Below, one piece after another: positions 35,391-64,000 of a stretch of 64,000 bases of DNA. A model generated the notes under the pieces. That model did not search any database. It saw nothing but the letters and a program-made list of their open reading frames with translations, and was not told the origin of the DNA. A program made the position numbers and the translations under genes. Source of the stretch: an uncultured Spirochaetota bacterium (lineage in GTDB: Bacteria; Spirochaetota; Spirochaetia; SZUA-6; Fen-1364); assembly GCA_963734545.1 (NCBI GenBank), contig CAVTHO010000003.1:96001-160000 (forward strand), read 5' to 3'. Every line of letters begins with the position of its first letter. The first letter of the stretch is position 1.

Positions 35391-35456
35391 TTGACAACTC
35401 TCGATCCGGCGCGATAGGATGGTTCTCGTGGTCTGACAGCTATACCAAGACCATCC
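35391..35456 (+). promoter_or_regulatory. Sigma70 promoter and GntR/FadR-like inverted repeat at the head of the large gene cluster
   Basis: TTGACA-N18-TAGGAT; overlapping inverted repeat GGATGGT...ACCATCC with inner TGGT/ACCA. Confidence 0.55.
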
Positions 35457-35473
35457 AACCGATTGAGGAGAGC

Positions 35474-36200
35474 ATGTTCGAACGCCTGCATTCGCAGAAG
35501 AACTACATGCAGATCGCGCGGCAGATCCGCAATCTGATCCGTGATGGAACCTTGAAGGTGGGGCAGCAGCTCCCGCCCGAACGGGCCCTCGTGGAGCAGT
35601 TCGGCGCTTCCCGGGCGAGCATCCGGGAGGCGTTGAGCGCGCTGGAGATGCTCGGGCTGATCGAGTGCAGGAGCGGACAGGGCAACTACATCAAGGCGGA
35701 CGGCTCCACCGGCACGATCGACGGGGAGATGCTCCGCACCCTGCTGCTGGACCACGACCCCTACGAGATTTTCGAGACCCGTCTCGAGCTGGAGCCCAGC
35801 ATGTCCGCCCTTGCGGCGGAGCGGGCTACCGACGAGGAACGGGACAAGCTGAAGGCCCACGTGGAGACACTGGCCGCGCTCGGCGAGCCGGATCCGCGCC
35901 GAGGGTTTCAAAGACGCGACCATCGAAGAATACATGGAAGAAGACAGGAAGTTCCACCTGCAGATCGGCAGATGCGCCCACAACAATGTGCTTTTCACGG
36001 TTTTTTCAGGGGTGAACCTCATGATGAAAGAGACCCACTGGAAGGCAATGAAGAGCAAAGGGTTGATGGACGAGAGCAATATCACTGCATACGCGGTCGA
36101 GCATGAGGCCATCCTGGCCGCCATATTGTCGAAAGACCCCCGGGCGGCCCAGCGGGAAGCGAAAAAGCACATCCTCATGCTGAAGAAGACTCTGTTTTAA
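35474..36200 (+). CDS. FadR/GntR-family transcriptional regulator (frameshift near 35890)
   Basis: LPPERAL..QFGASRASIREAL HTH; FCD motifs R..LE and D..FH..I. Confidence 0.9.
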
Positions 36201-36228
36201 GAACCGATTTCAATACGGAGGAAGGAAA

Positions 36229-37122
36229 ATGCTTTCAGGGAGCGAAGTCAAAGGAGTCATCCCGGCCCTTGTCACACCGTTCACGAAGAACGACCAGGTG
36301 GACCTGAAGGGCGTGGAGACGATCACGAAGTTCCTCGTGGAGAACGGCGTGCATGCCCTGATGCCCGTGGGCGGGACGGGGGAGTTTCCCAGCCTCCTGC
36401 GGGAGGAAAAGCGGGACGTGGTCGCGGCCGTGGCACGCGTGGCCAAGGGGAAGGTCCCCATCATCCCGGGAACGGCCGCCTGCAGCACGCGCGAGGTGAT
36501 CCTCCTCAGCAACGAAGCGTACGAAGCGGGGGCCGACGCGGTGATCGTGACCGCGCCCTACTACTTCAAGCTCCCCGATGAGTCGCTCATCCAGCACTAC
36601 ACGACCGTGGCGCACAACGTCGACTGCCCTGTTGTCGTGTACAACAATCCCCTCTATACCGGCAATCCCATGAGCCCGCAGCTCATCGCGGGGCTCATGG
36701 CGGTGAAGAACATCATCGGCGTGAAGAACAGCGCCTCTGACATGGGCCAGCTCATCGAAATGATCCGTCTTTCCCCCCAGGGGAAATCCCTGTGCACCGG
36801 CATCGACAGCCAGTTCTACCCGGCGCTGTGCGTGGGGGCCTCGGGTCTCTACTCCACTGCCGCCGGAATCATTCCTGCCCAGATGGTGAAGCTGTACGAG
36901 CTGTTCCTCCAGGGAAAACACGCGGAGGCGCTTGCGCTCAACATGAAGCTCCAATCCTTGAACAGGTACCTCGAGTACGATCCGGGGTACGTGGCCCCGG
37001 CCAAGGAGGCGCTCAATCTGCTGGGTCTTCCCGGCGGGTGCCTGCGCGCGCCCCTGCCCCAGCTTACCGCGGCGGAAAAGGCGGGCGTGAAGGCCGCGCT
37101 CACGACCATCGGGGTCTTATGA
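36229..37122 (+). CDS. DapA/NanA-family class I aldolase/lyase
   Basis: PALVTPF, GGTGE, YNNP and Schiff-base GVKNS motifs. Confidence 0.9.
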   Translation: MLSGSEVKGVIPALVTPFTKNDQVDLKGVETITKFLVENGVHALMPVGGTGEFPSLLREEKRDVVAAVARVAKGKVPIIPGTAACSTREVILLSNEAYEAGADAVIVTAPYYFKLPDESLIQHYTTVAHNVDCPVVVYNNPLYTGNPMSPQLIAGLMAVKNIIGVKNSASDMGQLIEMIRLSPQGKSLCTGIDSQFYPALCVGASGLYSTAAGIIPAQMVKLYELFLQGKHAEALALNMKLQSLNRYLEYDPGYVAPAKEALNLLGLPGGCLRAPLPQLTAAEKAGVKAALTTIGVL

Positions 37123-39189
37123 AGCTCCGAATGGGTGTCGACACCGGAGGCACTTTCACCGACGGTGTGGTGATCGACGCACACGGCGCCATCCACAACT
37201 TCAAGGAGCTGTCCACGCCGAAGGATCCCTCCATCGGCCTGTACAATGTCATCCGCAAGGCCGCCGCGCATTTCGGCAAGGACGTGAAAGGCTTTCTCGG
37301 GGACCTCGACTTCTTCGCGCACGGCACCACCGTGGCGACCAATACGCTTCTCACGGGAACGGGAGCATGCACGGGGCTCATTCTCACGAAAGGGTTCCGT
37401 GACACGCTGGAGATGCGGAGGGCCCACAAGGAAAACATCTGGGACCTCTACCTGCCCGTGGCCCCGCCCCTCGTGCCCCGGCGCCTGCGCATCGGCGTGC
37501 GGGAAAGGATCGACTGCGCGGGGCGCATCGTGCAGCCCCTCGAGGAGCAGGACGTGCGGGACGCGTGCGCGATTTTCAAGCGGGAGGGCGTGAAGGCGGT
37601 GGCCGTGTGCACCCTCTTCTCCTTCCTCAATGACGCGCACGAAAAGGCCATCCAGGCCATCGTCCGGGAGGAGATGCCCGACGCGTTCATCTCCATCTCC
37701 TCCGAGGTGCTTTCCCAGATACGCGAGTATGAGCGCATGTCGACCACCGTGGCGAACGCCTACGTGGGACCCCGGCTGACCGTCTACCTGTCGACCCTCG
37801 AGCGGAAGCTGAAGAATGACGGGCTCTCCCGGGCCTTCTACATCACTGCCTCGAACGCCGGGGTCATGACGGCGGAAACGGCCATTCGCCACGCATCCGC
37901 GACCCTGCTCTCCGGCCCGGCCGCCGGCGCCGTGGGGGGCATATTCTTCGCCGAGCTGCTCGGCCGCGGCAACCTCATCACCATGGACATGGGAGGTACC
38001 TCGTTCGACGTGACCCTGGTGAGCGAGGGCAAGGTGACGCTGAGCACCGAGGGCTCCATTGCCGGCTACCGGATCGCCAAGCCGATGATCGACATCAACA
38101 CGATCGGCGCGGGAGGCGGCTCGATCGCCTGGATCGACGCCGGCGGGATGCTCAAGGTGGGGCCGGCCTCGGCAGGCTCCGACCCCGGGCCCGTCTGCTA
38201 CGACCTGGGCGGAGAAAAGCCCACGGTGACGGATGCGAACCTCCTCCTCGGGTTCCTGGACAAGGACTACTTCCTCGGGGGAGAGATGAAGGTCAACGAG
38301 GGGCGGGCGCGGGCAGCGATGCAGAAGCTGATCGCGGAACCGCTCGGAATGTCCGTCGAGCAGGCGGCCGCGGGCGTGTTCCGGATCATCAACCAGAGCA
38401 TGGCGGATGCCACCAAGGTGGTGTCCGTCCAGCGCGGCCACGATCCGCGCGAGTATGCGCTGGTGAGCGCCGGCGGGGCGTGCTCCATCCATGCGTGCAA
38501 GATCGCGGAGGAGGTCGGCTCCACGACCGTCATTGTGCCGCGGGCGGCCAGCGTCTTCTGCGCGCTGGGCATGCTCGAGTCCGACATCCGCCTGGACACC
38601 TTGAAGACCTGTCACGCGGTGATCCCGGGAATCGATCTGGACGAATTCAACCGGATCATTGCCCAGGCGGAAAAGCAGGCCCTCACGGAGCTGCTGCAGG
38701 AGGGCGTGGAACGGGAGCGCGCGCGGCTGGTCAGGCATCTGGACATGCGCTACGTGGGCCAGCATCACGAGGTGAGCGTCGAGATTCCCTCCGGCTGCCT
38801 CATCGAAGAAAAGCACGTCGCGACAATCTCGGACGCCTTCCACAAGGCCCACGAGAGGCTCTATACGTACGCCACGCCGGAGAATCCGCAGGAGATCATG
38901 AATCTCCGCATCACTGCCGTCGGCGCGGTGGACAAGACGGGGCTTTCCCCGCGCCCCCTCGGAGGGCAGGACGCCTCGAAGGCGCGCAAGGGAACGCGGA
39001 AGCTGCGCTTCCAGGACAGCGACAAATGCGTCGAGGTCCCGGTCTACGACAGGGACCGCCTGGCGCCGGGAAACACGGATACCGGGTCCCGCGGTCATCG
39101 AGGAGCGGATTACCACCATCGTGGTGCACCCCGGCTGGGACGCGCAGGTGGATGCGTTCGAGAACGTGGTGATGGAGGCGCGGGCATGA
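37119..39189 (+). CDS. Hydantoinase/oxoprolinase subunit A, ATP-dependent (frameshift near 39075)
   Basis: DTGGTFTD, HGTTVATN, SGPAAG and DMGGTSFD motifs; true C-terminus GPAVIEE..TTIVV.PGW lies in the shifted frame. Confidence 0.9.
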
Positions 39190-40958
39190 GCGTCGCAGAG
39201 GCAGAATCCGCGAAGAAGGAATTCGAAGGGGCGCGGGACCCCATCACCCTCTCCGTCATCTACAATCGCCTGCTCACGATCAACCAGGAGATGGGGATCA
39301 CCATGATCAACACCTCCATCTCCCCGATCTTCGCGGAGGTGCACGACTTCTCCTGCGCAATCTGCGACTGGGCGAACAGGATCGTGGCGCAGATCGACGG
39401 GGTGCCGTCCCATACCGCCTCGGTCATGGAAGCGGTCAAGGCAGTCGGCCGGGAGTTCGGCGACGACATACACCCCGGCGATGTGTTCGTGCTCAATGAC
39501 CCGTACCTCGGCGGCACGCACCTGCCCGACATCACCATCATGAAGCCCGTCTACTACGAGGGGAAGCTCCAGTTCATCGCCATCAATCGCGCGCATCACG
39601 GCGACGTGGGCGGCATCGAGCCGGGCTCCTACGCGCCGAGCGCCCGCGAGCTCTTTCACGAGGGAATCAGGATCCCGCCGCTGCGCATCTATCGGGACGA
39701 AAAACCCATCATGGACGTGGTGAACATGATCCGCATCAACACCCGGATGCCCGACGCCCTGTGGGTGGACATGAAGGCGCAGGTGGCCTCCTGCCGCGTG
39801 GCGGAAAAGCGGATCCTCGAGCTCCTGGCCAAGTACGGGGTCGAGAAGACGCGCGCGACCATCGAGGACATCCACGGATACGCGGAGCGCCGGATGCGCC
39901 GGGAGATCGAGCGCCTGCCGGACGGCGTCTACAACGGGGAGACATTCCTCGATTCCGACGGATTTACCGACACGCCCATCAGGATCAGGGTGTCCATCCG
40001 CATCAAGGGCGACGAAGCCTGGGTGGATTTCGACGGGTCGGATCCCCAGGTGACCGGATTCGTGAACTCCCCGATGGCCAACACGGCCACCTGCGTGTAC
40101 GTGGCTTTTCTCACCACGGTCACGACACCCGACATTCCCCACAACGAGGGCGTGTACCGGCCGGTGCACATCAGCGCGCCGGAGGGAAGCATCGTGAATC
40201 CCCGGTTCCCCGCGCCGGTGGCCTCCTGCACACTGGACACCGCGTGCGCCATCCTCGAGGCTTGCTGGATGGCGCTTTCCCAGGTGCTGCCGGACAGGGT
40301 CCCCGCCGGCTGGAACAGGTGGAACGGTCCCACGATCACCGGTGTCGATCCGAGGACGAACAACTTCTACGTCATGTTCGGGTTCAATGGGTTCGGCGGC
40401 GCGGGCGGCATGCCCGGCATGGACGGCCGGCACTATATCGGGGACGGCATCGACCTCGGCGGATTGATCGCGCCGAACATCGAGACGAACGAGAGCGACT
40501 ATCCCCACCTCACGGAGTTCAATGAGCTCACCACGGATTCCTGCGGCGCCGGAAAGTGGCGCGGCGGCTGCGGAGCGCGCTACAGGGTGACGCTGCATGA
40601 CGCGAGCCCCACACTGGTGATGTTCGGAGACGGCAAGAAGACGGCGCCCTACGGGCTGTTCGGCGGCCGGCCGGGCTCGTGCAACCTCGCGTTCATCAAC
40701 GAGGGGAAGCCGACCCAGCGGGAGCTCAAGGCCAAGGAGACCGTATCCCTGGCCAGGGGGGACACCTACACGTCCTACCCTTCAGGCGGCGGGGGGTGGG
40801 GGAACCCGTTGGAGAGGGACCCCGAGAGCGTGCGGGACGATGTCCGCAACGAGATCATCTCCCCGCAGAGCGCGGAAAAGATCTACCGTGTGGTCCTCGA
40901 GGGGCCCGCATACACGATCAACAGGGAGCGGACCCTCGCGCTTCGCGGGGCGCGGTAG
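39186..40958 (+). CDS. Hydantoinase B/oxoprolinase subunit
   Basis: ATG overlaps the upstream TGA; DFSCA, NDPYLGGTHLPD, HHGDVGG and GGGGWGNP motifs. Confidence 0.9.
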   Translation: MSVAEAESAKKEFEGARDPITLSVIYNRLLTINQEMGITMINTSISPIFAEVHDFSCAICDWANRIVAQIDGVPSHTASVMEAVKAVGREFGDDIHPGDVFVLNDPYLGGTHLPDITIMKPVYYEGKLQFIAINRAHHGDVGGIEPGSYAPSARELFHEGIRIPPLRIYRDEKPIMDVVNMIRINTRMPDALWVDMKAQVASCRVAEKRILELLAKYGVEKTRATIEDIHGYAERRMRREIERLPDGVYNGETFLDSDGFTDTPIRIRVSIRIKGDEAWVDFDGSDPQVTGFVNSPMANTATCVYVAFLTTVTTPDIPHNEGVYRPVHISAPEGSIVNPRFPAPVASCTLDTACAILEACWMALSQVLPDRVPAGWNRWNGPTITGVDPRTNNFYVMFGFNGFGGAGGMPGMDGRHYIGDGIDLGGLIAPNIETNESDYPHLTEFNELTTDSCGAGKWRGGCGARYRVTLHDASPTLVMFGDGKKTAPYGLFGGRPGSCNLAFINEGKPTQRELKAKETVSLARGDTYTSYPSGGGGWGNPLERDPESVRDDVRNEIISPQSAEKIYRVVLEGPAYTINRERTLALRGAR

Positions 40959-40972
40959 GCAAGGAGGGAGAC

Positions 40973-42109
40973 ATGCAGCAGATCCGCAGGATCGCGGTGC
41001 TGGGTGCGGGAAGCGGCGGCTTCATGTGCGCGGCGGACCTTGGCAGCATGGGGTACGAAGTTGCCCTGTTCTCCCGGGAGCTCGACCGCATACGGGGTGT
41101 GAAGGAAAGGGGGACCATCGAGGTCCTCGACATAGATTCCCGGCCCACCGGGATGTGCGGCAAGGTGGCGCTTGCCACCAGCGACATCAGGGAGGCGGTG
41201 CGCGGCGCGCAGGTAATCCTCAATCCGATTCCCTATTTCGCCTGTGAAGAGTATGCCCGGATGGTGCTGCCCCATCTCGAGGAAGGGCAGGTCGTGATCT
41301 ATCTCGGAAAGGGCGGAGCCTGCCTCACGTGGGCCAAGGTGATGCGCGAGCTCGGGATCCGCAGGAGAGTGTATCTTGCCGACACGAACACCCTTCCGTA
41401 CGGCGCGTCGCGGATGGGTGATCACCAGGTCAGGCTGGAGAACAGGACCCAGAATCTCATCCTCGCAACATTTCCGGGCAGGGACGTCGACGCCGTGGCG
41501 GCAGTGGCGGAGCAGCTGTTCACGAAGGCGCATGGCTATGACATCCGCAGGGGCCAGAACGCCATCGATTCGATCCTCGTGGACTACAACGCCATCACCC
41601 ACACTCCGCCCATGGTCTGCAACGCGGCGCGCATCGAGCTGGGGGAGAAGCCTTTTTTCCTCTTCGGGAAGAGGGAGAACACCCCGTCGGTGGTGCGGCT
41701 GATCGAGCGCATCGACAGGGAGCGAATGGCCATAGGCGAAGCCCTGGGGCTGAAGCAGTGGACGCTCGAGGAAGAGATCAAGATGGTGAAGTGGAATCCA
41801 CACGGCGAGGATTTCGTGCTTCCGCTGTACGAGGCCATCCACACGCCGTTTCTCGAGGTGTGTGAGGGCCCCTACACGCTGGACACCCGGCACCTCAAGG
41901 AAGACATACCCTACGGGCTGGTCACCTATTCGTCCCTGGGCCGGATGCTGGGAGTGCCGACGCCCGTGACAGATGCCATCATCACCATGTCCGAGGTGCT
42001 TCTCTCGAAAGATTTCCGCGCCATGGGCCGGACCGTGCAGTCCATGGGCATCAATCCTTCCTGGTCGCGCAGGAAACTGTCGAAATACCTGCGCGAGGGA
42101 GCAGCGTGA
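40973..42109 (+). CDS. NAD/NADP octopine/nopaline (opine) dehydrogenase family protein
   Basis: IAVLGAGSGG, TNTLPY, ID.ER and EDIPYGL motifs; RBS AAGGAGG. Confidence 0.85.
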   Translation: MQQIRRIAVLGAGSGGFMCAADLGSMGYEVALFSRELDRIRGVKERGTIEVLDIDSRPTGMCGKVALATSDIREAVRGAQVILNPIPYFACEEYARMVLPHLEEGQVVIYLGKGGACLTWAKVMRELGIRRRVYLADTNTLPYGASRMGDHQVRLENRTQNLILATFPGRDVDAVAAVAEQLFTKAHGYDIRRGQNAIDSILVDYNAITHTPPMVCNAARIELGEKPFFLFGKRENTPSVVRLIERIDRERMAIGEALGLKQWTLEEEIKMVKWNPHGEDFVLPLYEAIHTPFLEVCEGPYTLDTRHLKEDIPYGLVTYSSLGRMLGVPTPVTDAIITMSEVLLSKDFRAMGRTVQSMGINPSWSRRKLSKYLREGAA

Positions 42110-42137
42110 ACCACGTTCATACAAGGGGGAAACGAGC

Positions 42138-43139
42138 ATGAAAGACTTGAAGGGTCGAGATCTGAAGGGAATCGCCGATTTCACCGCCGAGGAGATCGAG
42201 TTCACGCTCGAAGTCTCCCGGCTCCTGAAGCTCGAGCAGAAGATGGGAAAGCCCCACCGGCTGCTGGAGGGAAAGACGCTGGCAGCCATCTTCGAGACGC
42301 AGTCCACCCGGACGAGCATTTCCTTCGAGACGGCCATGACCCAGCTCGGCGGCCACATGATCTACCTGGACGAGAACCGGATGTGGGTCGGCACCGCGGC
42401 AGAGGAAGACTGGCACGACACGGTGAAGACCATCGACCGCTACGCGGACGCAATCGCCTACCGGGCGATCCGGCGTGATATGCTGGAAAACGCCGCGGAG
42501 TACGCCCGCATCCCTCTCATCAATGCGTCCTGCCCCGTGGAGCATCCCTGCCAGGCATTCGCGGACGTCATGACCATGATCGAGAAGAAGGGCCCGGTGA
42601 AAAAGGCCAAGGTTGCGCTCCTCTGGGGCTACCGGACCGCGAACCCTCCGGCAGGCCTGACCAACTCGCTCATGCTGATGGCGGGAAAGCTCGGGTTCCA
42701 GCTCGACGTGGCGTGCCCGGTGGGATTCGATCCCGACATGGGCGTCAAGTCGGAGGCGGACCGGGAGGCCGCAGCGAGCGGAGGGAGCGTGAAGATCGTC
42801 CGTTCCTACGAGGAGGCGGTGAAAGACGCCGACTTCGTCAGCATCTACTCGTGGGTGTCACCCGAAGTTTTCGCCAAGGGACTGGAGACGCACTTCAAGG
42901 GAGACCCTGAGTTCCAGGAGAAGAAGAAAAAGCTGAAGGACGCCTGGTGCGTGAACAAGAAGACCATGAGCATGGCCCCCCGGGACAGCAGGGTGATGCA
43001 CTGCATCCCGGTGTCGAGGAACAACGAGGTGACGGACGAGGTACTGAACTCTCCGCAGAGCATCATCTTCGACGAGGCGGAGAACAGGCTGCACACCGAA
43101 AAGGCGATCCTGGCGCTCCTCATGGGCGGCTACAGGTAA
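42138..43139 (+). CDS. Carbamoyltransferase (OTC fold; ArgF'/YgeW-like, substrate unknown)
   Basis: STRT, HPCQ, MHCIP and AENRLH motifs; lacks the ornithine-binding DxxxSMG. Confidence 0.85.
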   Translation: MKDLKGRDLKGIADFTAEEIEFTLEVSRLLKLEQKMGKPHRLLEGKTLAAIFETQSTRTSISFETAMTQLGGHMIYLDENRMWVGTAAEEDWHDTVKTIDRYADAIAYRAIRRDMLENAAEYARIPLINASCPVEHPCQAFADVMTMIEKKGPVKKAKVALLWGYRTANPPAGLTNSLMLMAGKLGFQLDVACPVGFDPDMGVKSEADREAAASGGSVKIVRSYEEAVKDADFVSIYSWVSPEVFAKGLETHFKGDPEFQEKKKKLKDAWCVNKKTMSMAPRDSRVMHCIPVSRNNEVTDEVLNSPQSIIFDEAENRLHTEKAILALLMGGYR

Positions 43140-43154
43140 GGCAGGGGCTTCGTG

Positions 43155-44462: not shown

Positions 44463-44474
44463 GCGGAGGGACAG

Positions 44475-46959: not shown

Positions 46960-46997
46960 AGCGCGCTCGACCTGAAATGGAAAGGAGGTGAATCAGC

Positions 46998-47459
46998 ATG
47001 CTGGAAGGAAAGAAGATCATTATTCTCGGGGACCGGGACGGGATACCGGGCGGCGCCATCGAGGCGTGCCTCGCGGGGAAAAACGTGGAGATCGTGTTCT
47101 CCACGACCGCGTGCTTTGTCTGAACGAGCGCCGGAGCAATGGACCTGGAGAACCAGAAACGGGTGAAAGCCCTGGCGGAGCAGATCGGCAAGGAGAACAT
47201 CGTCGTCCTCCTTGGCGGCGCCGACGCCGAGGCGAGCGGGCTGATCGCTGAAACGGTGATCGCCGGCGATCCCGCGTATGCAGGTGCATTGACAGGAGTC
47301 CAGTTGGGACTCCCCGCGTATCACATTCTCGAGCCCGAGATCAGGCAGGAGATCGATCCTGCCGTGTACGAAGCGAACATCGCAATGATGGAGATGGTGC
47401 TGTCCGTGGCCGACATCGTGAAAGAGGTGTCGTCCATCAGGAACAAGCTCCTCTCCTGA
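46998..47459 (+). CDS. grdA: Reductase selenoprotein A (Sec at TGA 47121-47123)
   Basis: RBS AAGGAGGT; MLEGKKIIILGDRDGIPG...ACFV-U-TSAGAMDLENQ, in frame with ORF 47139..47459. Confidence 0.93.
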
Positions 47460-47471
47460 CGGAGACGTGAA

Positions 47472-51315: not shown

Positions 51316-51325
51316 GGGAGGGGCA

Positions 51326-54059: not shown

Positions 54060-54063
54060 GAAA

Positions 54064-56649: not shown

Positions 56650-56713
56650 GCGTTGATTCCGGTTTTCATCACGGCTTTGTTAAGGCCGTCTTCAGTTTGC
56701 GGAGGAGGTCGAT

Positions 56714-57730
56714 ATGAAGAAGAGACTCGTGTGTGTCGTGGTCGCGGTCTTCAGCATCATGCTGGCGGCGCCGCTGTTCGCGGCGCCGGTCAGCCTCGCC
56801 ATCTTCGTCCCGGGCGTGGCGGCGGGCAGCCCCCTGTACGAGCAGATGGTAAGCGGCGCGCAGAAGGCGGCCGCGGAGTATCCCGACATGACCCTGAAGG
56901 TCGTGGAGGCCGGGTTCAACCAGGCGGAATGGCCCGAAAAGATGACGTCCCTCGCGGCAACGGGTGAGTACACCTACATCCTCACCTCGAACCCGTCGAT
57001 GCCCTTCATCTGCGCGGACGTGGCAAAGAGCTTCCCGCAGCAGAAGTTCATCGTGATGGACGGCTACCTTCCTCCCGGCAATCCGCAGTTCTACACCCTG
57101 ATGTACAACCAGGTGGAGCAGGGCTACTTCGCCGGCTACCTCGCGGGGCTCGTGACCAAGAGCAAAATGAAGGGCGCGACGCCGGACCTGAAGGTGGGCG
57201 CGATCGTGGCGCAGGAATACCCGGCGCTCACCAAGGAGATGATTCCCGGCTACACGCAGGGCTTCAAGGCGGTGGACCCGAAGATCACCCTCGACTACCG
57301 GGTGGTCGGCAACTGGTATGACGCCAACAAGGGCGCCGACCTGGCGAACAGCATGATGGATGCCGGCGTGGACGTGATCCTCGCGATCGCCGGCGGGGCG
57401 GGGCAGGGCATCATCAAGGCGGCGCAGGAGCGCGGGCGCTACGTCGTGTACTTCGACAGCAACGCGTACGCGATCGCCCCGGGGACGATCGTCGGGTGCG
57501 CGACGCTGGACCAGAACCGGGCCGTCTACGAGACCCTGAAGAAGGCCCTGCAGGGGACGCTCGCTTTCGGCACGGCCGACGTGGTGAACGCCAAGGCGGG
57601 GTACGTGGATTTCGCGGACAACGACCCGCTGTACACGAAGAATGTCCCGGCGGACGTGCGCGCAAAGATGACGGATCTCATGAAGAAGTTCCGCTGCGGC
57701 GCCATGAGCCTTCCGGTTCCCCCGATGTAG
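56714..57730 (+). CDS. BMP-family (nucleoside-type) ABC substrate-binding protein
   Basis: Signal peptide; EQGYFAGYLAG, GNWYDANKG and GVDVILAIAGGAG motifs. Confidence 0.88.
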   Translation: MKKRLVCVVVAVFSIMLAAPLFAAPVSLAIFVPGVAAGSPLYEQMVSGAQKAAAEYPDMTLKVVEAGFNQAEWPEKMTSLAATGEYTYILTSNPSMPFICADVAKSFPQQKFIVMDGYLPPGNPQFYTLMYNQVEQGYFAGYLAGLVTKSKMKGATPDLKVGAIVAQEYPALTKEMIPGYTQGFKAVDPKITLDYRVVGNWYDANKGADLANSMMDAGVDVILAIAGGAGQGIIKAAQERGRYVVYFDSNAYAIAPGTIVGCATLDQNRAVYETLKKALQGTLAFGTADVVNAKAGYVDFADNDPLYTKNVPADVRAKMTDLMKKFRCGAMSLPVPPM

Positions 57731-57794
57731 AGAGGACGATTCCGATCGTGCGGGGGAGCAATCCCCCGCACGCTCCGGAACGCGCGAGGGACTG

Positions 57795-59349
57795 ATGCCG
57801 TACCTGGAGATGCGGGGCATATCGAAGCTCTACCCGAATGACCTTCTGGCCAACGATGCCATCGATTTCTCCGTGGAGAAGAACGAGATCCATGCCATCG
57901 TCGGCGAGAACGGAGCGGGCAAGACGACTCTCATGAAGATCCTCTACGGCCTGGAGCAGCCGGATGCGGGCTCCCTCACGCTCGCAGGGAACCCGGTCAC
58001 GATCCGCAGCCCCCTGGACGCCAACCGGCTCGGGATCGGCATGGTCCACCAGCATTTCAAGCTCATCCCGGAGTTCACGGTCGCGGAGAACGTCGTTCTG
58101 GGCATCGAGCCGCGAAAGAACCTCCTGTTCGTGGACAGAAGCGCCGCCGCGGAGCGCATCCGCGAAGTGATTGCGAGCCACGGGTTCAGCATCGATCCGC
58201 GCGCGCGCGTGCTGAACCTGACCGTCGGCCAGATGCAGCAGGTGGAGATCGTCAAGATGCTCTACCGCAGGGCGGACCTCCTCATCCTGGACGAGCCCAC
58301 CTCGGTGCTCACCGAGCAGGAGATCCACAAGCTCTTCGAGACCCTGCGCAGCCTCCAGAGGAACGGGAAGACCTGCATCATCATCACGCACAAGCTGCAG
58401 GAGGTGATGGAGATCTCGGACCGGGTCACCGTGATGCGCAAGGGGAAGGTCGTCGCCGTCCGGGAGACCGCGGAAGTGGACAAGGCGGAGCTGTCACGCC
58501 TCATGGTCGGCAAGAGCGTGCTCTTCCAGTTCGAGCGGGCCAGGAAGGCGTGCGGGGACGCCGTGCTCGAGCTGGTGGACGTGACCCTGAAGCAGCGCGG
58601 CAGGGACCGGGCGCTCCTGGACGGGATCAACCTCACGGTCCGCTCGTGCGAGATAGTCGGGGTGGCGGGGGTCAGCGGAAACGGGCTCGGCGAGCTGGAG
58701 GACGCGGTGGCGGGCCTGCGCCGGATCACCAGCGGAAGGATCCTTCACAATGGGGAGGACATCTGCCGGTCTTTCTCCTGCCACGCTGCGCGAGCGGGGG
58801 TTCGCGTACGTCCCCGCCGACAGGCTGCGGCGCGGCTCGAGCCTCCAGTCCACGGTCACGGAAAACATGATCGTGACCAGCCACCACCGTTTCCTTCGGG
58901 CGGGGTTCCTCAAGGGGGGAAAGATCCAGCAATTCGCGGAACGCCTGACAAAAAGCTTTTCGATCGACGGGGCCCCCCGGGCGCCCATCGGTACTCTTTC
59001 GGGCGGCAACATCCAGAAGGTGATCCTCGCGCGCGAGCTCGCCACTGCCTCCAATCTCGTCATCGTGTCCGAGCCCACGTGGGGGCTGGACGTGGCGAGC
59101 AGCCAGTTCGTCTACGAGAAGATCCTGGAGATGCGCAAGGGGGGTGCCGGGATTCTCTTCATCTCCTCCAACCTCGACGAGATACTCGGCATCGCGGACA
59201 GCATCGCGGTGATGTACCGGGGCCGGGTCGTCGCGTTCCTGCCGAATGTCCCGGACCTCACCAAGGAGCGGATCGGGGAATACATGCTGGGTCTGCGGGA
59301 CGATTTCGCCCCCGAGGGCGGCCCGCAGAAGAAGGATGCGCAGCCGTGA
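57795..59349 (+). CDS. CUT2/nucleoside ABC ATPase with two ABC domains (frameshift near 58770)
   Basis: GENGAGKTT, GMVHQHF, LSGGNIQK and EPTWGLD motifs. Confidence 0.9.
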
Positions 59350-60392
59350 AGGAAAAGAGGAATCTCGGCGCGCTGTTCACCGGGTTCACCGGCCTGGCGC
59401 TCACGCTCCTGCTCTCGTTCGGGCTGGTCATCGGGCTCGTCTTCCTGCTCAGCAGGACGCCGGGCCGCACCCTCTACTACTTCTTCGTCGGCGCGTTCAC
59501 CAACAAGTACTACCTGGGAAACATGCTGAACGTCGCCGTTCCGCTCGTCTTCACCGGCCTCGGGATCTCTGTTGCGTTCAAGTCGTCCGTGTTCAACCTC
59601 GGGGGTGAGGGGCAGATCTACGCCGGGGGCCTTGCCGCCACGGCCGTCTGCCTGGCCCTGCCCGCGGCCAATGGCTACCTCGGCGGGTTCACCGCGCTGG
59701 CGGGGGCAGTGGTGCTTTCCGGGGGCATCGCCGGATTGTCGGGGTTTTTCCGGATGAAGTGGAACACGGATGAAATGATCTCCTCGTTCCTCCTCTCCTC
59801 CGCGGTCGTCCTCGTCGTGAACTATTTCATCACGGGCCCCCTCGACGACCCGAAGAACAATCTCCTTGCCACGCTGGCCATCGGACCGCAGTACGGGCTC
59901 CTGAGGATATTCCCTCCGTCGAAGCTCAATGTCAGCGCCTTCTTCGCCCTTGCGGCGGCCCTGGCAGTGTTTTTCTTCATGTACAAGAGCCACGCGGGAT
60001 ACGAGATGCGGATGTGCGGGCTCAACCGCGAGTTTTCCCGCTACGGCGGCATCAACGTGTCCAAGTACCTCGTGCTTCCCATGATCATGAGCGGCGCCCT
60101 GCACGGGCTGGGGGGAGGCCTCATGGTGCTCGGCACCTACGGGGCGACGATCGAGGGCTACTCCTTCGGCATGGGCTGGAACGGGATCGCCGTGGCGCTC
60201 ATTGCGAAGAACAACCCGCTCGGCGTGATCCCCGCCGCATTCCTGTTCGCCTATCTCGACGCCGGGGCAAAGGCCGCGATGCTCAACTCGGACGTCACGT
60301 TCGAGATCGCGGCGATCGCCCAGTCGTTCATATTCTATTTCGTGACCGCGCAGGCCCTCTACGGCTTGACGCGAAGGCGGAGAAGGGCATGA
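59346..60392 (+). CDS. Nucleoside-type ABC permease 1
   Basis: FNLGGEGQ and GWNGIAVALIA.NNP motifs; GTG overlaps the upstream TGA. Confidence 0.9.
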   Translation: MKEKRNLGALFTGFTGLALTLLLSFGLVIGLVFLLSRTPGRTLYYFFVGAFTNKYYLGNMLNVAVPLVFTGLGISVAFKSSVFNLGGEGQIYAGGLAATAVCLALPAANGYLGGFTALAGAVVLSGGIAGLSGFFRMKWNTDEMISSFLLSSAVVLVVNYFITGPLDDPKNNLLATLAIGPQYGLLRIFPPSKLNVSAFFALAAALAVFFFMYKSHAGYEMRMCGLNREFSRYGGINVSKYLVLPMIMSGALHGLGGGLMVLGTYGATIEGYSFGMGWNGIAVALIAKNNPLGVIPAAFLFAYLDAGAKAAMLNSDVTFEIAAIAQSFIFYFVTAQALYGLTRRRRRA

Positions 60393-61300
60393 GCGGCAAC
60401 TCTCCGTTCTCCATTCCCCTCATCCACAACGCGGTGGACATCATGACGCCGTTCCTGCTCGCCGGGATCGGCGGGCTCTTCACGGAGCTGGCCGGGATGC
60501 TGAACATCGCGCTCGAAGGGCTCATCCTGACCGGAGCCTTCTTCAGCATCGTGTTCGCGGCCGCCACCGGCAACCTGCTCCTGGGGATCCTCCTCGGGAT
60601 CCTGTGCGCAATGGCGCTTGCCTGGATGTTCGGGGCCGTCACCCTGTACATGCGGGCCAACGTCTTCATCACCGGTCTCGCCACGAATCTCTTCGCGTCC
60701 GGGTTCACCATCGTGCTCGCTTTCCAGCTCTTCAAGACAAAAGGGGTCATCCAGTTCCCGGGGATTCCGAAGCTTCCCGCCCTCGTTGTTCCCCCGTTTC
60801 TCCAGAAAATACCGGTGGTGGGAGATGTCCTCTTCGGGCACAACGTGATCGTCTACCTCACCTGGGCCATCGTGCTGCTGTCCGCCCTGGTCATCTACCG
60901 TACGCCGTTCGGGCTTCGACTCCGCGGCACCGGTCTGAATTCCGCCACGGTCGTGTCTCTCGGTCTCAATCCCAAACGCTACCAGATGGCCGGCATCCTG
61001 ATCTCCGGCCTGACCTGCGGCCTGGCCGGCGCCATGCTCACCATCGAGCTGGCAGCATTCGTGCCCGAGATATCCTCGGGCCGGGGATGGATCGCCCTGG
61101 TGGCCATCTATCTGGGCAACAAGACGCCGTGGGGGATCTTCATCGCTTCGTTCGTGTTCGGCCTGGCGGAGAGTTTTTCGAACTACGCCCAGGGCGCCAT
61201 CAAGGTGCCGGTGGACTTCATCCTGGCCCTGCCGTACGTCATCACGGTGGTCGCAATGATCATCTATTCCATGTTCCGCCATTTCCGCTCGCGGGGATGA
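60389..61300 (+). CDS. Nucleoside-type ABC permease 2
   Basis: E.AG.LNIALEG, GRGWIAL and LPYV.T motifs. Confidence 0.9.
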   Translation: MSGNSPFSIPLIHNAVDIMTPFLLAGIGGLFTELAGMLNIALEGLILTGAFFSIVFAAATGNLLLGILLGILCAMALAWMFGAVTLYMRANVFITGLATNLFASGFTIVLAFQLFKTKGVIQFPGIPKLPALVVPPFLQKIPVVGDVLFGHNVIVYLTWAIVLLSALVIYRTPFGLRLRGTGLNSATVVSLGLNPKRYQMAGILISGLTCGLAGAMLTIELAAFVPEISSGRGWIALVAIYLGNKTPWGIFIASFVFGLAESFSNYAQGAIKVPVDFILALPYVITVVAMIIYSMFRHFRSRG

Positions 61301-61333
61301 GGCGGCCGACAGCCGAGTGAGAGGAGCTACGAT

Positions 61334-62360
61334 ATGAAAGCAGCCGTCCTGACCGCGCCGGAGAAGATCGAGATACAGGACATCGAGAAGCCGGTCCTCA
61401 AGGGGAACGAGATCCTCGTGAAGCTGAAGAACTGCGGCATCTGCACCCTCGAGCAGAGGCTCTACACGGGGGCGGTCAAGATCCGGTTCCCCATCGTTCC
61501 CGGACACGAGGCATCCGGGGAGGTCGTCCAGGTCGGCAGCGAGGTGAACTCCGACATCGCCGTCGGGACCCGCGTGGCGCTCGACCTCGTCCTGCGCTGC
61601 GGCGAATGCTACTACTGCCGCACCGGGCAGTCGAACATGTGCCTGAACCGGTTCAAGAAGGACGCGAAGGTGCTCGGCGGCTTCGGGGAGTACGTCGCCG
61701 TGGCCGCGACCCAGGTATTCCCCATCCCTGCCTCGCTCTCATTCGAGGAGGCCGCCTTTGCCGAGCCGCTTTCCTGCTGCGTCCGCTCGCTCAAGAAAAT
61801 CGGGCTGCACCTGGCGGAAGACCTCCTCATCATCGGGGCGGGACCCATGGGGCAGATGCACCTGCAGGTGGCCCTCTGCATGGGGGCCCGGGTATTCGTC
61901 TCGGATCCTGATACATCCCGCCTGGCCATGGCGAAGAGGCTGGGCGCATTCGCCGCAATCGACCCCGGCAGCATGGATCTCATCGGCATCATCAAGGAGC
62001 ACACGGAGGGCCGCGGCGTGGACGCGTGCGTCATCACGAGCGCCGCGCACGTTGCCCTCAACACGGCGTTCGAGTCGATCTGCAAGAACGGGCGGGTGAA
62101 CATCTACACCTCCTACACGGACAAGCCGTCGATTCCCGTCGACGCGAATACCCTTCACCGGACCGAACAGACCATCACCGGGCAGCGAGGGAAGGACGGA
62201 GCAGGATTTCCTCCAGGCGGTGCGCCTCCTCTCCTTCGGAAAGGTGGACGTGAAGCCGCTCATCAGCGGCACGGTGGGGTACCCGCAGCTGGTGAGCGGC
62301 ATCCTGGCAGCGATGACGCCGAAAACCTACCGGGTGCTCCTGGAACACGAAGGCGGCTGA
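61334..62360 (+). CDS. Zn-dependent alcohol/polyol dehydrogenase (frameshift near 62180)
   Basis: CGIC, GHE, CGECYYC...C and GAGPMG motifs; TGA at 62358-62360. Confidence 0.88.
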
Positions 62361-63805
62361 TGATACTTGCAGTCGACGTGGGGACCTCGGTCCTCAAGGG
62401 GGGGCTGTTCGACAGGCACGGTGAACCCCGGTCCCGCGCCGAATCGCCCCTCGAGCTCCTGGCGCATCCCGATCCGCTGTGGCACGAATCCGACGCGAGG
62501 GAGTGGGTCACCGCGCTCCGTCTGGTCACGCGTCGTCTCCGCCTGTCCCATGCCGGTCCGCTCGATGCCGTCGTGGTGAGCGGCAATGGCCCGACCCTGC
62601 TCCCCGTCGGCGCGGACGGGATGCCGTTGACGCCCGCGATGACGTGGATGGACAGGCGGGGCGTGGCAGAGGCCGGAATCATCTCCGAGAAGAGCGGCCT
62701 GCCGACGGACCCCACCTTCTATCTTCCCAAGGCGTTCTGGCTGTACCGGAATCGACCGGACGTGTACGAGAAGACCCGCTGGTTCTTCTCGTGTCCCGAG
62801 TTCATCGCGTACACGCTCACCGGGGAGGCGGTCACCTTCCTCCCGACTCCGCAGTACACGCGCCTGATCTGGGAGGAGAAGCTGATCCGTGATCTCGGCA
62901 TGGCGCCGGAGAAGTTTCCGCCCTTTATCCGGTCCGGCAAGGTGCTGGGCAGGGTGAGCGCGGCGGGAGAGAAAGCCACGGGAATACCCGCCGGCGTTCC
63001 GGTCGTGGCGGGAGGGCCCGACTTTCTCGTCTCCCTTCTGGGCACGGCCACTGTCCTGCCGGGCCGGGCGTGCATCAGGTCCGGCACGTCGGAGGGCATC
63101 AACCTCTGCTCCCGCATCCCGACCGCGGATCGGCGGCTCCTGTGCTTCAGTCACATTGCGGAGGGTTTCTACAACGTTTCCGGCATGATCTCGACGTCGG
63201 GCAAGGCACTCGAGTGGCTCAAGGACACGATCGGCAGGTCCGCGGACAGCTACGAGAGGGTCTTCGAAGACATCGAGCAGGTGCCGCCCGGGGCCGACAG
63301 CCTCCTGTTTCTCCCCTACCTGGCCGGAGAGAGGGCGCCGCTCTGGGACCCCTGCGCGCGCGGCGCCTTCATCGGGCTCACTCTGAATCATCACGGCCGC
63401 GAGATGACGCGCGCCGTGGTCGAATCAGTGGCGTACGCGATCCGCGACGTGGTCGAGGTCATGGAGGATTGCGGGCAGTCCGTGCAGGACCTGCGCATCA
63501 CGGGCAACCCTTCGCGGAGCCGTCTCTGGAACCAGATCAAGGCGGACGTGACGGGACGGCGCATCCTCGTCCCCGTGCTGCAGGATTCGGATCTCGCCGG
63601 CGACGTGTGCCTCGCGCTGCATGCCCTGGGCGAATACGAATCCGCCGCCGCCGCCTCCGAGGCCATCGTGAAGATGGGAATGGTCTTCGAGCCGAACGCG
63701 GAGAACAAGGGCCTGTACGATGATATGTTCCGCCTCTACCGCGAATCCTACACCGGTCTCCGCGCAGTGTTTCAAAAACTTTCGAGCCTCAGGAGCACAC
63801 CATGA
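62360..63805 (+). CDS. FGGY-family carbohydrate kinase (xylulokinase-like)
   Basis: AVDVGTS, WMDRR, FLPYLAGERAP and QIKAD motifs. Confidence 0.9.
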   Translation: MILAVDVGTSVLKGGLFDRHGEPRSRAESPLELLAHPDPLWHESDAREWVTALRLVTRRLRLSHAGPLDAVVVSGNGPTLLPVGADGMPLTPAMTWMDRRGVAEAGIISEKSGLPTDPTFYLPKAFWLYRNRPDVYEKTRWFFSCPEFIAYTLTGEAVTFLPTPQYTRLIWEEKLIRDLGMAPEKFPPFIRSGKVLGRVSAAGEKATGIPAGVPVVAGGPDFLVSLLGTATVLPGRACIRSGTSEGINLCSRIPTADRRLLCFSHIAEGFYNVSGMISTSGKALEWLKDTIGRSADSYERVFEDIEQVPPGADSLLFLPYLAGERAPLWDPCARGAFIGLTLNHHGREMTRAVVESVAYAIRDVVEVMEDCGQSVQDLRITGNPSRSRLWNQIKADVTGRRILVPVLQDSDLAGDVCLALHALGEYESAAAASEAIVKMGMVFEPNAENKGLYDDMFRLYRESYTGLRAVFQKLSSLRSTP

Positions 63806-64000
63806 CAGTCGGCAAGAGCATCAGAGAGTCGTCCCTCTTCAGGCGCGCCACGGGCAGGACCGTCATCGTGGCCCTCGATCACGGCGGCATCGCGGGCCCC
63901 ATCGCGGGAATCGAGCGGCCCGCCGAGGTCGTCCGGGCCTGCCGCGAGGGAGGCGCGGACGCGATCCTCGCCACGCGCGGCGTGGTGACGGCCTCCCAGG
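63802..64000 (+). CDS. Class I DhnA/LsrF-family aldolase; runs off the right edge
   Basis: Read manually: MTVGKSIRESSLFRRATGRTVIVALDHGGIAGP...GGADAIL. Confidence 0.75.
   Translation, partial: MTVGKSIRESSLFRRATGRTVIVALDHGGIAGPIAGIERPAEVVRACREGGADAILATRGVVTASQ

Follow-up and report, generated by a model that had tools for sequence, protein, structure and literature searches.

A candidate gene cluster for anaerobic riboflavin catabolism in an uncultured Spirochaetota bacterium

A gene cluster of about 29 kb was analysed in a 64,000-nucleotide stretch of DNA, called the window below, from an uncultured Spirochaetota bacterium (assembly GCA_963734545.1, contig CAVTHO010000003.1, positions 96,001 to 160,000; G000:C3:96001-160000 in the handles used here). 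The cluster comprises 25 co-oriented genes on the + strand, from 35,474 to the window end, and brings together an ABC importer, a selenocysteine (Sec)-dependent Grd-type reductase, a sugar-processing module and a set of predicted ring-degrading enzymes. Its best explanation is the anaerobic catabolism of riboflavin, or of a very similar N-ribityl flavin or lumazine, a reading given a probability of roughly 0.5. The source genome G000 (5.14 Mb, 10 contigs, 89% complete) has this cluster as its sole GRDB-family locus. Gene content was established with an NCBIfam scan and with a Pfam scan that covered every plus-strand stop-to-stop frame of 60 aa or more (120 in all) between 35.3 kb and the window end. 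An earlier note on this DNA had spoken of over 20 co-oriented genes, and every gene family that it named was recovered in its place on the + strand.

The steps of the proposed route, and their order, are inferred from protein family, gene context and analogy. An RfuABCD-type ABC system would import the flavin; a Zn-dependent dehydrogenase would oxidise the 4'-hydroxyl of the ribityl chain and an FGGY kinase would phosphorylate the terminal C5'-hydroxyl, as in fucose and rhamnose logic, and a DhnA-type class I aldolase would then cut between C2' and C3' to give dihydroxyacetone phosphate (DHAP) and formylmethylflavin. AFOR or another aldehyde-oxidising enzyme (the relatives' enzyme being Fer4 plus AFOR) would convert the latter to carboxymethylflavin, an N-substituted glycine, whose N10-CH2COO- bond could be cleaved reductively by the GrdB/GrdE-like pair with GrdA, GrdC/D, TrxA and TrxB to yield lumichrome and acetyl-phosphate. 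A PydA-like enzyme would reduce the uracil-like ring of the alloxazine, a cog0402 amidohydrolase and the ATP-dependent HyuAB would open or deaminate it, and an OTC-like enzyme would phosphorolyse the resulting ureido group to carbamoyl-phosphate, from which a carbamate kinase would make ATP. The remaining quinoxaline/pyrazine part would be processed by an Xdh-type hydroxylase and an opine dehydrogenase to a 2-oxo acid and an aryl diamine; the opine dehydrogenase would split an N-(carboxyalkyl) aryl amine into 2-oxo acid and amine, which fits the modules of 2-oxoacid:ferredoxin oxidoreductase (OFOR) and ADP-forming acyl-CoA synthetase (ACD) found in variants of the cluster.

Importer, selenoenzyme and the link to flavin side-chain breakdown

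The importer was described in the earlier note as nucleoside-type, and here the description has to be changed. The best solved relative of its BMP-family binding protein is the Treponema pallidum riboflavin-binding protein TP0298/RfuA (4IIL; 281 bits, E 1e-82), against 62.6 bits to the nucleoside binder TmpC/PnrA. Four residues (Y27, N82, Y157 and W189) set riboflavin binders apart from PnrA-like proteins, a distinction calibrated on only three binders in the accessible part of the source (Deka et al. 2013, PMC3573665). By our own mapping (chain numbering offset 22) the window protein retains each of the four. So do 13 of 13 BMP proteins linked to the cluster, among them nine from Grd-less metagenome variants that are 35-49% identical to the window protein. 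The importer is thus predicted to be a riboflavin transporter of the RfuABCD type and not a nucleoside-type system.

The whole Grd-type set announced by the earlier note (grdB, a grdE-like gene, trxB, grdA, trxA, grdC and grdD) is present, and its protein B belongs to a clade of its own. The window's GrdB/GrdE-like pair and its clade are named GrdB* and GrdE* here. The TGA codon of GrdB* (44193-44195) lies inside YTSTUGTCTRC, so that the conserved Sec motif TSTUGTCTRC is intact; the TGA is shared by all 46 homologues examined, and it is followed by a candidate SECIS-like hairpin, whose SECIS_4 match is below the gathering score in the window (31.2 bits) and reaches 45.4 bits in the homologous place of a related locus (L017). 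Against the NCBIfam cut-offs for GrdB (TIGR01917, 602.2), GrdF (NF040794, 800) and GrdH (NF040795, 775), the window protein scores 434.1, 471.2 and 405.4, under all three, and five relatives of the clade are likewise below every cut-off (GrdB 435-453, GrdF 470.7-488.8 and GrdH 415-433.5 bits). By comparison, 24 of 26 outgroup GrdB proteins (from Firmicutes, Synergistetes, Treponema, Desulfovibrio, Oceanospirillales and others) exceed the GrdB cut-off and the other two reach 601.0. In GrdE* the cleavage-site region reads VSGNYVWPCFKIP, with SGNY, that is, a tyrosine where the pyruvoyl-forming cysteine is expected. An alignment of 74 GrdE-family open reading frames (ORFs) from 80 loci has SGNC in 69 of 69 canonical proteins and SGNY in 5 of 5 clade members. 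A database search returned 459 homologues at E <= 1e-30 among 8000 scored, and SGNY is found in 118 of the 120 best of them (51-100% identity), the named members including Spirochaetota metagenome-assembled genomes (MAGs), Tepidimicrobium xylanilyticum, an Oscillospiraceae isolate, Lachnospiraceae KGMB03038, Dorea sp. and Massilistercora. Scores and motif together point to a distinct clade of Grd protein B.

Pyruvoyl-less partners are known for betaine (GrdI) and fluoroacetate (FarE), which have good leaving groups and for which, according to the accessible part of PMC10838667, no Schiff base is needed; glycine or sarcosine is therefore disfavoured as the substrate of GrdB*/GrdE*. An architecture that forms acetyl-phosphate is still to be expected, because GrdB* keeps the Sec motif and GrdA (with Sec), GrdC, GrdD, TrxA and TrxB are all encoded alongside it. 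In three related loci GrdC and GrdD form one continuous ORF of 852-888 aa (L015 13459-16014, L016 14655-17225 and L017 14477-17140), and a GrdC-GrdD fusion has been noted in Clostridium sp. FS41 (PMC4417704).

A link between this kind of reductase and flavins comes from Clostridium scindens, which converts riboflavin to lumichrome anaerobically and induces a neighbourhood called fin (PMC13492142, J Bacteriol 2026). The part of that report accessible to us lists as fin genes a RibF-like kinase, a class I aldolase, an alcohol dehydrogenase (ADH), an aldehyde dehydrogenase and two Grd-family genes; it adds that F. fissicatena, without the last three fin genes, makes hydroxyethylflavin, and its authors suggest the release of a triose followed by removal of a two-carbon unit. 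When 401 Bacillota genomes were searched with the NY-type GrdE, 119 gave some GrdE-family match and six, plus the MAG G045, gave the NY type. Five Bacillota loci (G264, G285, G240, G129 and G430) encode GrdB* with TGA and GrdE* with SGNY. The order in G264, whose GrdB* is 49.6% identical to that of the window, is regulator-GrdB*-GrdE*-aldehyde dehydrogenase-Fe-ADH-SorC regulator-DeoC/LacD aldolase-Zn-ADH-permease-RibF, which is the fin composition as given in the accessible part of PMC13492142. In G285 the order is GrdC-GrdD-TrxB-TrxA, then Fer4-AFOR-GrdB*-GrdE*-GrdA, a phosphotransferase system (PTS), Zn-ADH and aldolase. The window's cluster holds the aldolase, the Zn-ADH and GrdB*/GrdE*, and an aldehyde-oxidising AFOR is found in the relatives G041-G045. 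The PTS of G285 (L215 13514-16137, - strand) is of the mannose family (IIA-IID) and lies between GrdA and the Zn-ADH/aldolase pair; it may represent a different uptake route for a related substrate. Names from C. scindens also appear in a 90% protein cluster of the NY-type GrdE (P0091), and these were set aside as a clustering artefact, as they belong to unrelated fragments of 94-104 aa labelled 'AAA family ATPase' or 'hypothetical protein'.

Two suppositions of the earlier note are touched by these results. Import of a polyol-bearing N-heterocycle is supported by the riboflavin signature of the BMP protein and by the NY-type Grd in fin-type neighbourhoods, the nucleoside-type importer attached to it having fallen away. 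Similarly, the passage of the polyol arm through dehydrogenase, kinase and aldolase, with cleavage of an N-substituted glycine by Grd, gains support from fin-type neighbourhoods with aldolase, ADH, aldehyde dehydrogenase and RibF, and the order of these steps stays conjectural. Taken as a whole, the interpretation given in the earlier note is partly supported, and to a notable extent in its central logic of a polyol-bearing N-heterocycle, an N-substituted glycine cut by a Grd-type selenoenzyme and carbamoyl-phosphate as a further product.

Integrity, conservation and gene content of the cluster

Many genes of the cluster are broken in frame in this assembly. A frameshift-aware dynamic-programming alignment of the relatives' intact proteins to the window located 37 breaks, nine in GrdE* and 28 in ten other genes; three of the latter (51774, 57770 and 61300), which fall within the leaders of guide ORFs, are possibly spurious. 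Breaks crowd together at 44.4-54 kb, and few are found in HyuAB, the opine dehydrogenase, the OTC-like gene and GrdB; in HyuA the last 37 or so residues are in another frame after a break near 39075. Relatives assembled from short reads have single open frames (GrdE 441-446 aa, TrxB about 418 aa, HyuA and HyuB separate). Logan contigs from four wetland metagenome runs (92-99% alike) were aligned to 42000-58000 and gave at least 12 indels, with 34 further; among the matches listed, nine of the 12 indels lie within 3 nucleotides of a predicted break and agree with it in direction (44704, 45573, 45918, 47832, 47872, 48619, 48735, 48889 and 55883). Since the short-read contigs of the wetlands lack the indels, the frame breaks are assembly errors and the genes are intact in the population. 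Errors of this kind are not limited to the cluster, because rpoC also has at least one break and spans two frames (G000:C9:92395-96472), rpoB being open, but they are far denser at 44.4-54 kb. A pseudogene reading was discarded, the indels being single-base and without in-frame decay, the relatives intact and the short-read contigs free of them; the apparent HyuA-HyuB and ADH-FGGY fusions were likewise discarded as artefacts of the breaks near 39075 and 62180, as these are separate genes in the relatives. The genes of the earlier observation are therefore real, although it had to be corrected for assembly errors, for these two fusions and for the name of the importer. More generally, indels in long-read MAGs may mimic pseudogenes or gene fusions as they do in this cluster. 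The wetland metagenomes contain close relatives of the cluster, with k-mer shares of 0.22-0.31 in the best five runs and smaller shares in the others.

The combination of genes is conserved beyond this genome. Of 40 relatives that were sampled, 3 have the GrdB-like protein. A scan limited to a single genome for each species gave 600 candidate stretches, of which 541 encode relatives. From these, 80 were kept, and among them five spirochaetal MAG loci are 67-82% identical to the window protein, one Bacillota MAG 55% and the other 74 at most 51%. In tBLASTn maps the whole gene order is present in G042, G043 and G044, and it is followed up to the contig ends in G041 and G005. The shared order runs GntR-(DapA)-HyuA-HyuB-opine dehydrogenase-OTC-GrdB-GrdE-(TrxB)-GrdA-TrxA-GrdC/D in its first half and [Fer4-AFOR]-Xdh(FAD, FeS, Mo)-amidohydrolase-PydA-like-BMP-ABC-permeases-ADH-FGGY-aldolase in its second. 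At least five other MAG species of Spirochaetales carry it, with a GC content of 49-64% in the colinear relatives. AFOR is present in G041-G045, and DapA and a transketolase (G041/G005) are accessory genes. The transketolase-like gene was considered as a decarboxylase like LumK/L and given little weight, as it scores 626 against a transketolase equivalog cut-off of 488.

The combination partly recurs in the Bacillota MAG G045, where the order is aldolase-GrdB-GrdE-TrxB-TrxA-GrdA-GrdCD, with the aldolase directly 5' of GrdB*, and about 12 kb further OTC-amidohydrolase-HyuA-HyuB-opine dehydrogenase-AFOR followed by a carbamate kinase. In the same MAG an MtmB-family ORF of 467 aa (L106 6845-8245, - strand) has no in-frame stop and hence no pyrrolysine codon; it adjoins an IclR regulator and an acetate kinase and is divergent from the OTC-amidohydrolase-HyuAB-opine dehydrogenase operon. 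A metagenome scan with an opine dehydrogenase alignment gave 80 further loci with parts of the combination, and HyuA and HyuB lie upstream of the opine dehydrogenase in all 34 that have enough flank. The earlier note had held that lack of conservation elsewhere would speak against a linked pathway, and such a lack is not what was found. In 37 metagenome loci with at least 2.5 kb after the OTC-like gene, the next known gene is Fer4(-AFOR) in nine, MtmB-like (after a corrinoid protein) in seven, GrdB in six, Xdh in four, PydA-like in four, transketolase in two and another gene in five. Further end modules are MttB plus OCD, and an IOR-like OFOR plus ACD. At L132 12131-16680 and L179 17222-21121 a corrinoid protein, an MtmB-like protein, an MttB-family methyltransferase and an OCD/mu-crystallin (SbnB-like) protein replace Grd. 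The OFOR and ACD modules (L150, L153, L155, L172, L173, L179 and L182) suggest that a 2-oxo acid product is turned into ATP. The core (HyuAB, opine dehydrogenase, OTC-like, Xdh, amidohydrolase and PydA-like) is widespread in metagenomes with or without Grd, and Grd is one of several interchangeable end modules on a wider HyuAB-opine dehydrogenase-OTC core.

Within this core the carbamoyltransferase was rightly called non-canonical by the earlier note. Aligned with 1pvv it keeps the carbamoyl-phosphate motifs HPCQ and HCIP, with STRTS for STRTR, and the ornithine loop DxxxSMG is replaced by YSWVSPEVFAKGLETHF, about 11 residues longer; the enzyme is OTC-like and probably uses a substrate other than ornithine. 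Among solved structures, the amidohydrolase comes closest to atrazine chlorohydrolase and to the deaminases of methylthioadenosine and 8-oxoguanine. In the aerobic lumichrome pathway, as set out in the accessible part of PMC12746152, ring hydrolysis, urea removal, amidine hydrolysis, thiamine pyrophosphate-dependent decarboxylation and xanthine-oxidase-type hydroxylation take place, and by analogy the cluster would hold anaerobic counterparts of the classes for pyrimidine-ring hydrolysis, urea removal, amidine hydrolysis and xanthine-oxidase-type hydroxylation. Carbamate kinase was absent from the window, as the earlier note had said; one is encoded elsewhere in G000 (contig C4) and others lie beside the cluster in the relatives G044 and G045.

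Table 1. Features of the cluster, with window positions and the evidence for each
Feature	Position	Strand	Remarks
Promoter-like site TTGACA-18-TAGGAT, 5' of regulator	35391..35420	+	weak: chance-level frequency
GntR/FCD (FadR-subfamily) regulator	35474..36197	+	Pfam GntR and FCD over two frames, break near 35885; kept upstream of HyuA in relatives
DapA-like (DHDPS-family) class I lyase	36229..37122	+	accessory: only G000, G005, G041 and a few metagenome loci
HyuA, ATP-dependent hydantoinase/oxoprolinase family subunit A	37119..39186	+	best NCBIfam match caprolactamase CapA, below cut-off
HyuB, hydantoinase/oxoprolinase family subunit B	39093..40958	+	Pfam, NCBIfam; no frame break
Opine dehydrogenase family enzyme (octopine dehydrogenase family)	40973..42109	+	closest solved structure Arthrobacter CENDH, 1bg6
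Non-canonical OTC-like carbamoyltransferase	42129..43139	+	272.5 against OTC cut-off of 280.85
GrdB*, selenoprotein B, distinct clade	43152..44462	+	Sec codon TGA at 44193-44195
SECIS-like hairpin directly 3' of GrdB* TGA	44196..44233	+	Rfam SECIS_4 31.2 bits, E 0.0023, below gathering score of 38
GrdE*, pyruvoyl-less partner of GrdB* (SGNY for SGNC)	44475..45790	+	9 frame breaks; end approximate
Thioredoxin reductase TrxB	45798..46962	+	5 frame breaks; start approximate
GrdA selenoprotein A, motif CFVUT	46998..47459	+	Sec codon TGA at 47121-47123
Thioredoxin TrxA, clostridial Grd-type	47472..47792	+	Pfam, NCBIfam
GrdC and GrdD (protein C beta, alpha)	47830..50391	+	9 frame breaks
Mo-hydroxylase FAD subunit, nearer XdhB than YgfM	50481..51327	+	break near 51168
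Mo-hydroxylase 2x[2Fe-2S] subunit	51326..51787	+	Pfam, NCBIfam
Mo-hydroxylase molybdopterin subunit, nearer XdhA than XdhD	51887..54059	+	4-6 frame breaks
cog0402-type amidohydrolase (Amidohydro_1; SsnA-like/deaminase-like)	54064..55443	+	NCBIfam, 26% identity to E. coli SsnA
PydA/PreA-like flavin reductase with 2x[4Fe-4S] tail (DHO_dh and Fer4; UacX-like)	55443..56649	+	break near 55884
RfuA-like BMP-family predicted riboflavin-binding protein	56714..57730	+	281 bits to 4IIL; Y, N, Y, W kept
ABC ATPase, two cassettes, RfuB-like	57795..59349	+	break near 58764
Two BPD_transp_2 permeases, RfuC- and RfuD-like	59352..61300	+	Pfam, NCBIfam
Zn-dependent polyol/alcohol dehydrogenase	61334..62354	+	break near 62180
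FGGY-family sugar kinase	62360..63805	+	Pfam, NCBIfam
DhnA-type class I aldolase (DeoC/LacD family)	63799..64000, runs past window	+	NCBIfam PRK07226, 248 against 241

At the 5' end, the earlier note had seen one promoter and a FadR regulator; the regulator is a GntR/FCD protein and the motif lies exactly at 35391-35420, but a scan of 20 kb gave three such sites where chance alone predicts 2.0 ± 1.6, which makes this promoter-like site weak evidence. The overlapping stop and start codons of the earlier note cannot be judged in the frame-broken genes, and tight or overlapping junctions were found in the intact relative G044. No riboswitch was detected in the window between 30 and 64 kb (E <= 0.1) or in seven related loci (gathering score). 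A short-chain dehydrogenase gene directly upstream of the regulator (34488-35267, +) is syntenic in G005 by blastn and could be a member of the cluster. Further upstream, a UPF0261 protein adjoins a PEP_hydrolase-like protein (23288-25302, +), near 2-oxoacid dehydrogenase E1/E2 genes (19845-22022, - strand) and a SorC-type sugar-binding regulator. On the other side, the remainder of the aldolase gene (about 590 bases) is followed 3' of the window by a major facilitator superfamily (MFS) gene and then by selB, selA and selD, convergent to the cluster (G000:C3:161709-165987; likewise in L103, L104 and L105). The sel genes are convergent next to the cluster in the relatives G042-G044 too. With selB, selA and selD directly behind the aldolase and MFS genes, the one Grd locus of the genome and its Sec machinery make up a single block.

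Weighing of the riboflavin reading and its rivals

Several points weigh against riboflavin catabolism. The roles assigned to HyuAB, the opine dehydrogenase and DapA are guesses; AFOR is absent from G000's own cluster, and the cluster encodes no protein with a Flavokinase or FAD_syn domain (RibF-like), its place being taken by the FGGY kinase. The likeness to fin is one of neighbourhood composition. In G240, G129 and G430, GrdB*-GrdE* is accompanied by Fe-ADH and/or an amino-acid permease, with an aldehyde dehydrogenase also in G240 and G129, and from these contexts the NY-type clade may take other N-substituted glycines. Grd follows the OTC-like gene in only 6 of the 37 metagenome loci, the variant L179 carries a xanthine/uracil permease, the corrinoid methyltransferase and OFOR plus ACD modules are not obviously needed by a flavin route, and the methyltransferase variants hint at an N-methylated amine that this route does not explain. 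Finally, RfuABCD is a vitamin importer in pathogenic spirochaetes, and here too the importer could serve a riboflavin auxotrophy, given that neither G000 (89% complete) nor G043 yielded a ribH gene. Auxotrophy is not the whole reason for its place, because G042 and G044 have ribH along with the cluster; G045 has ribH as well.

Among the alternatives, the same logic may apply to another N-ribityl or pteridine heterocycle, such as 6,7-dimethyl-8-ribityllumazine, the deazaflavin FO/F420 head group, roseoflavin, pterins or lumazines, in which case the N-substituted glycine could come from an opened pyrazine ring (an N-aryl or N-pyrimidinyl glycine) and not from the side chain. The opine dehydrogenase and HyuAB suit the opening of a lactam to an N-(carboxyalkyl)amine, the OFOR plus ACD modules suit the release of a 2-oxo acid, and the habitat (wetland, peat and sediment) is rich in methanogen cofactors; the RfuA-type residues predict a ligand like ribityl-isoalloxazine, but on the strength of three binders in the accessible part of PMC3573665. 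Nevertheless this seems unlikely, since the sole experimental anchor of the NY-type Grd context is the conversion of riboflavin to lumichrome in C. scindens (accessible part of PMC13492142), and an aldolase within a few genes of Grd* in G045, G264 and G285 favours a role in side-chain removal.

No more probable is a mosaic, in which a vitamin importer, a pentitol/pentulose module and Grd would have come to lie beside a purine-like N-heterocycle core without a common substrate. The modules do vary independently, as the genes that follow the OTC-like gene indicate; G045 keeps Grd and OTC-amidohydrolase-HyuAB-opine dehydrogenase with no Xdh, PreA, BMP, ADH or FGGY nearby, the fin-like loci of Firmicutes lack the core, and promoter-like sites inside the cluster are at chance level. 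On the other hand, the 25-gene order is kept in at least four species over a GC range of 49 to 64%, RfuA-type proteins stand beside the core in distant Grd-less variants with the riboflavin residues in 9 of 9, and the genome has no other Grd locus.

Purine fermenters classically feed glycine reductase. Anaerobic purine breakdown, either as a variant of the reductive urate/2,8-dioxopurine pathway or by the clostridial xanthinase route, would have HyuAB open a hydantoin, the ureido group give carbamoyl-phosphate and Grd reduce glycine, and is judged slightly less probable still. The trio of Xdh, cog0402 amidohydrolase and PydA-like reductase resembles XdhD/SsnA/UacX, the top NCBIfam match of the amidohydrolase is SsnA (TIGR03314), the variant L179 has its xanthine/uracil permease, and the published SsnA network takes in Spirochaetota (accessible parts of PMC12507026 and of the preprint 10.1101/2025.05.19.654654). 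Yet the SsnA score is 247.4 against a cut-off of 455.5 and that for YgeW (TIGR03316) is 85.6 against 500, with 26% identity to both E. coli proteins and 26-32% between cluster enzymes and their E. coli urate-pathway counterparts in general. The Mo subunit is nearer XdhA than XdhD, DpaL/YgeX (TIGR03528) exceeds its cut-off in none of five genomes, and a YgeY-type peptidase exceeds its own only outside the cluster (G000:C6:410893-412056, G042:C26 and G044:C40). Moreover, GrdE* lacks the pyruvoyl cysteine needed for glycine, GrdB* is under the GrdB equivalog cut-off, the importer signature is that of riboflavin and not of nucleosides, and the accessible parts of the urate papers make no mention of opine dehydrogenase, oxoprolinase-type hydantoinase or glycine reductase. 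The YgeY-type gene adjoins a paralogue of the cluster's amidohydrolase (27% identical), and the two may mark a second N-heterocycle locus.

Fermentation of creatinine or N-methylhydantoin, a pathway described in Clostridium FS41 and Tissierella (PMC4417704, PMC5364220), with the amidohydrolase as creatinine deiminase, HyuAB as N-methylhydantoinase (the family holds the ATP-dependent N-methylhydantoinases), the OTC-like enzyme phosphorolysing N-carbamoylsarcosine and Grd as sarcosine reductase, is very improbable: the best NCBIfam matches of GrdB*/GrdE* are indeed GrdF/GrdG, and MtmB-like genes with corrinoid proteins replace Grd in some variants and an MtmB-like gene adjoins the operon in G045, but the scores are 471 against 800 for GrdF and 280 against 780 for GrdG, sarcosine reduction needs a pyruvoyl group that GrdE* cannot form, and Xdh, the PydA-like reductase, opine dehydrogenase, Rfu importer and polyol module would be left without a role. 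The creatinine and urate parallels drawn in the earlier note thus stand as analogies only, with 26% identity to SsnA and YgeW, no DpaL and no equivalog score for GrdF/G.

Meaning and comparison with known systems

Beyond the choice of substrate, it is possible, if tentative, that a free-living anaerobe dismantles vitamin B2 fully for energy, with a pyruvoyl-less Grd cleaving carboxymethylflavin, the alloxazine being degraded reductively and a new transcarbamylase harvesting carbamoyl-phosphate. If so, one cofactor molecule would give three handles for substrate-level phosphorylation (DHAP, acetyl-phosphate and carbamoyl-phosphate), and the widespread HyuAB-opine dehydrogenase-OTC-Xdh core would supply what has been missing in sediments and guts, an anaerobic route for lumichrome, flavins and pteridines. 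Anaerobic flavin destruction is largely unexplored; as far as the accessible parts of the reports go, the aerobic lumichrome route was reconstituted in 2025 and the anaerobic conversion of riboflavin to lumichrome was first reported in 2026, without enzymology. The cluster provides a complete, testable scheme with named candidate enzymes, and SGNY in the GrdE partner may serve as the sequence signature of a fourth, widespread substrate class of Grd selenoenzymes, with members in cultured Firmicutes such as Tepidimicrobium xylanilyticum and Dorea. The cluster is also relevant to vitamin cross-feeding and to electron shuttling by flavins in sediments, to gut lumichrome and the ligands of mucosal-associated invariant T (MAIT) cells, and to the annotation of BMP 'nucleoside' transporters and 'glycine reductase' genes.

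In the literature no paper was found that joins any three of glycine reductase, hydantoinase, carbamoyltransferase and opine dehydrogenase. The earlier note's statement that it knew no described pathway with this combination has been partly overtaken by work of 2025-2026 (PMC13492142, PMC12746152, PMC12507026). The closest systems are fin (2026, unproven), the aerobic Lum pathway (2025) and the reductive urate pathway (2025), and in the accessible parts of these sources none combines the parts of the cluster.

Like glycine, sarcosine and betaine reductases, the cluster's enzyme has Sec in TSTUGTCTRC, a candidate SECIS-like hairpin, a Sec-containing GrdA, GrdC/D and Trx/TrxB; it differs in lying below the three equivalog cut-offs and in lacking the pyruvoyl cysteine, as do GrdI and FarE, and its GrdB* is at most 51% identical to the canonical GrdB proteins of the scan. 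The importer resembles the spirochaetal RfuABCD, as presented in the accessible part of PMC3573665, in its BMP protein with the equivalents of Y27/N82/Y157/W189 and in the gene order that follows, an ATPase of two cassettes and then two permeases. Unlike a stand-alone RfuABCD operon for vitamin salvage, the predicted Rfu-type importer of the cluster is embedded among catabolic genes.

The fin neighbourhood of C. scindens and other Lachnospiraceae (accessible part of PMC13492142) also has a class I aldolase, a Zn-ADH, an aldehyde-oxidising enzyme and a Grd-family pair. It uses a RibF-like kinase where the cluster has FGGY, and an aldehyde dehydrogenase where the relatives have AFOR and ferredoxin; unlike fin, the cluster encodes GrdA, GrdC/D and TrxA/B all together, has an Rfu-type ABC system instead of RibU, is joined to a ring-degrading core and comes from a different phylum and habitat. 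The aerobic Lum pathway of Nocardioides simplex (PMC12746152, 2025), compared here by the description in its accessible part, resembles the proposed route in ring opening, removal of a ureido group, amidine hydrolysis and xanthine-oxidase-type hydroxylation. In contrast, the cluster has no P450, Rieske or catechol dioxygenases; a PydA-like reductase, the ATP-dependent HyuAB and an opine dehydrogenase would replace the oxygenases, and urea removal would be phosphorolytic, giving carbamoyl-phosphate. The reductive urate pathway (xdhD-ygfK-ssnA-hyuA-ygeW-ygeY-ygeX in E. coli, with the UacX variant in C. difficile) likewise combines a Mo-hydroxylase, a PydA-type Fe-S flavin reductase and a cog0402 amidohydrolase with hydantoin-type ring opening and a carbamoyltransferase that feeds carbamate kinase. 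Its enzymes and those of the cluster are related at the family level only; compared with it, the cluster has an ATP-dependent HyuAB in place of a D-hydantoinase, an OTC-like enzyme in place of the knotted YgeW type and no YgeX, and it possesses an opine dehydrogenase and a Grd-type reductase in addition.

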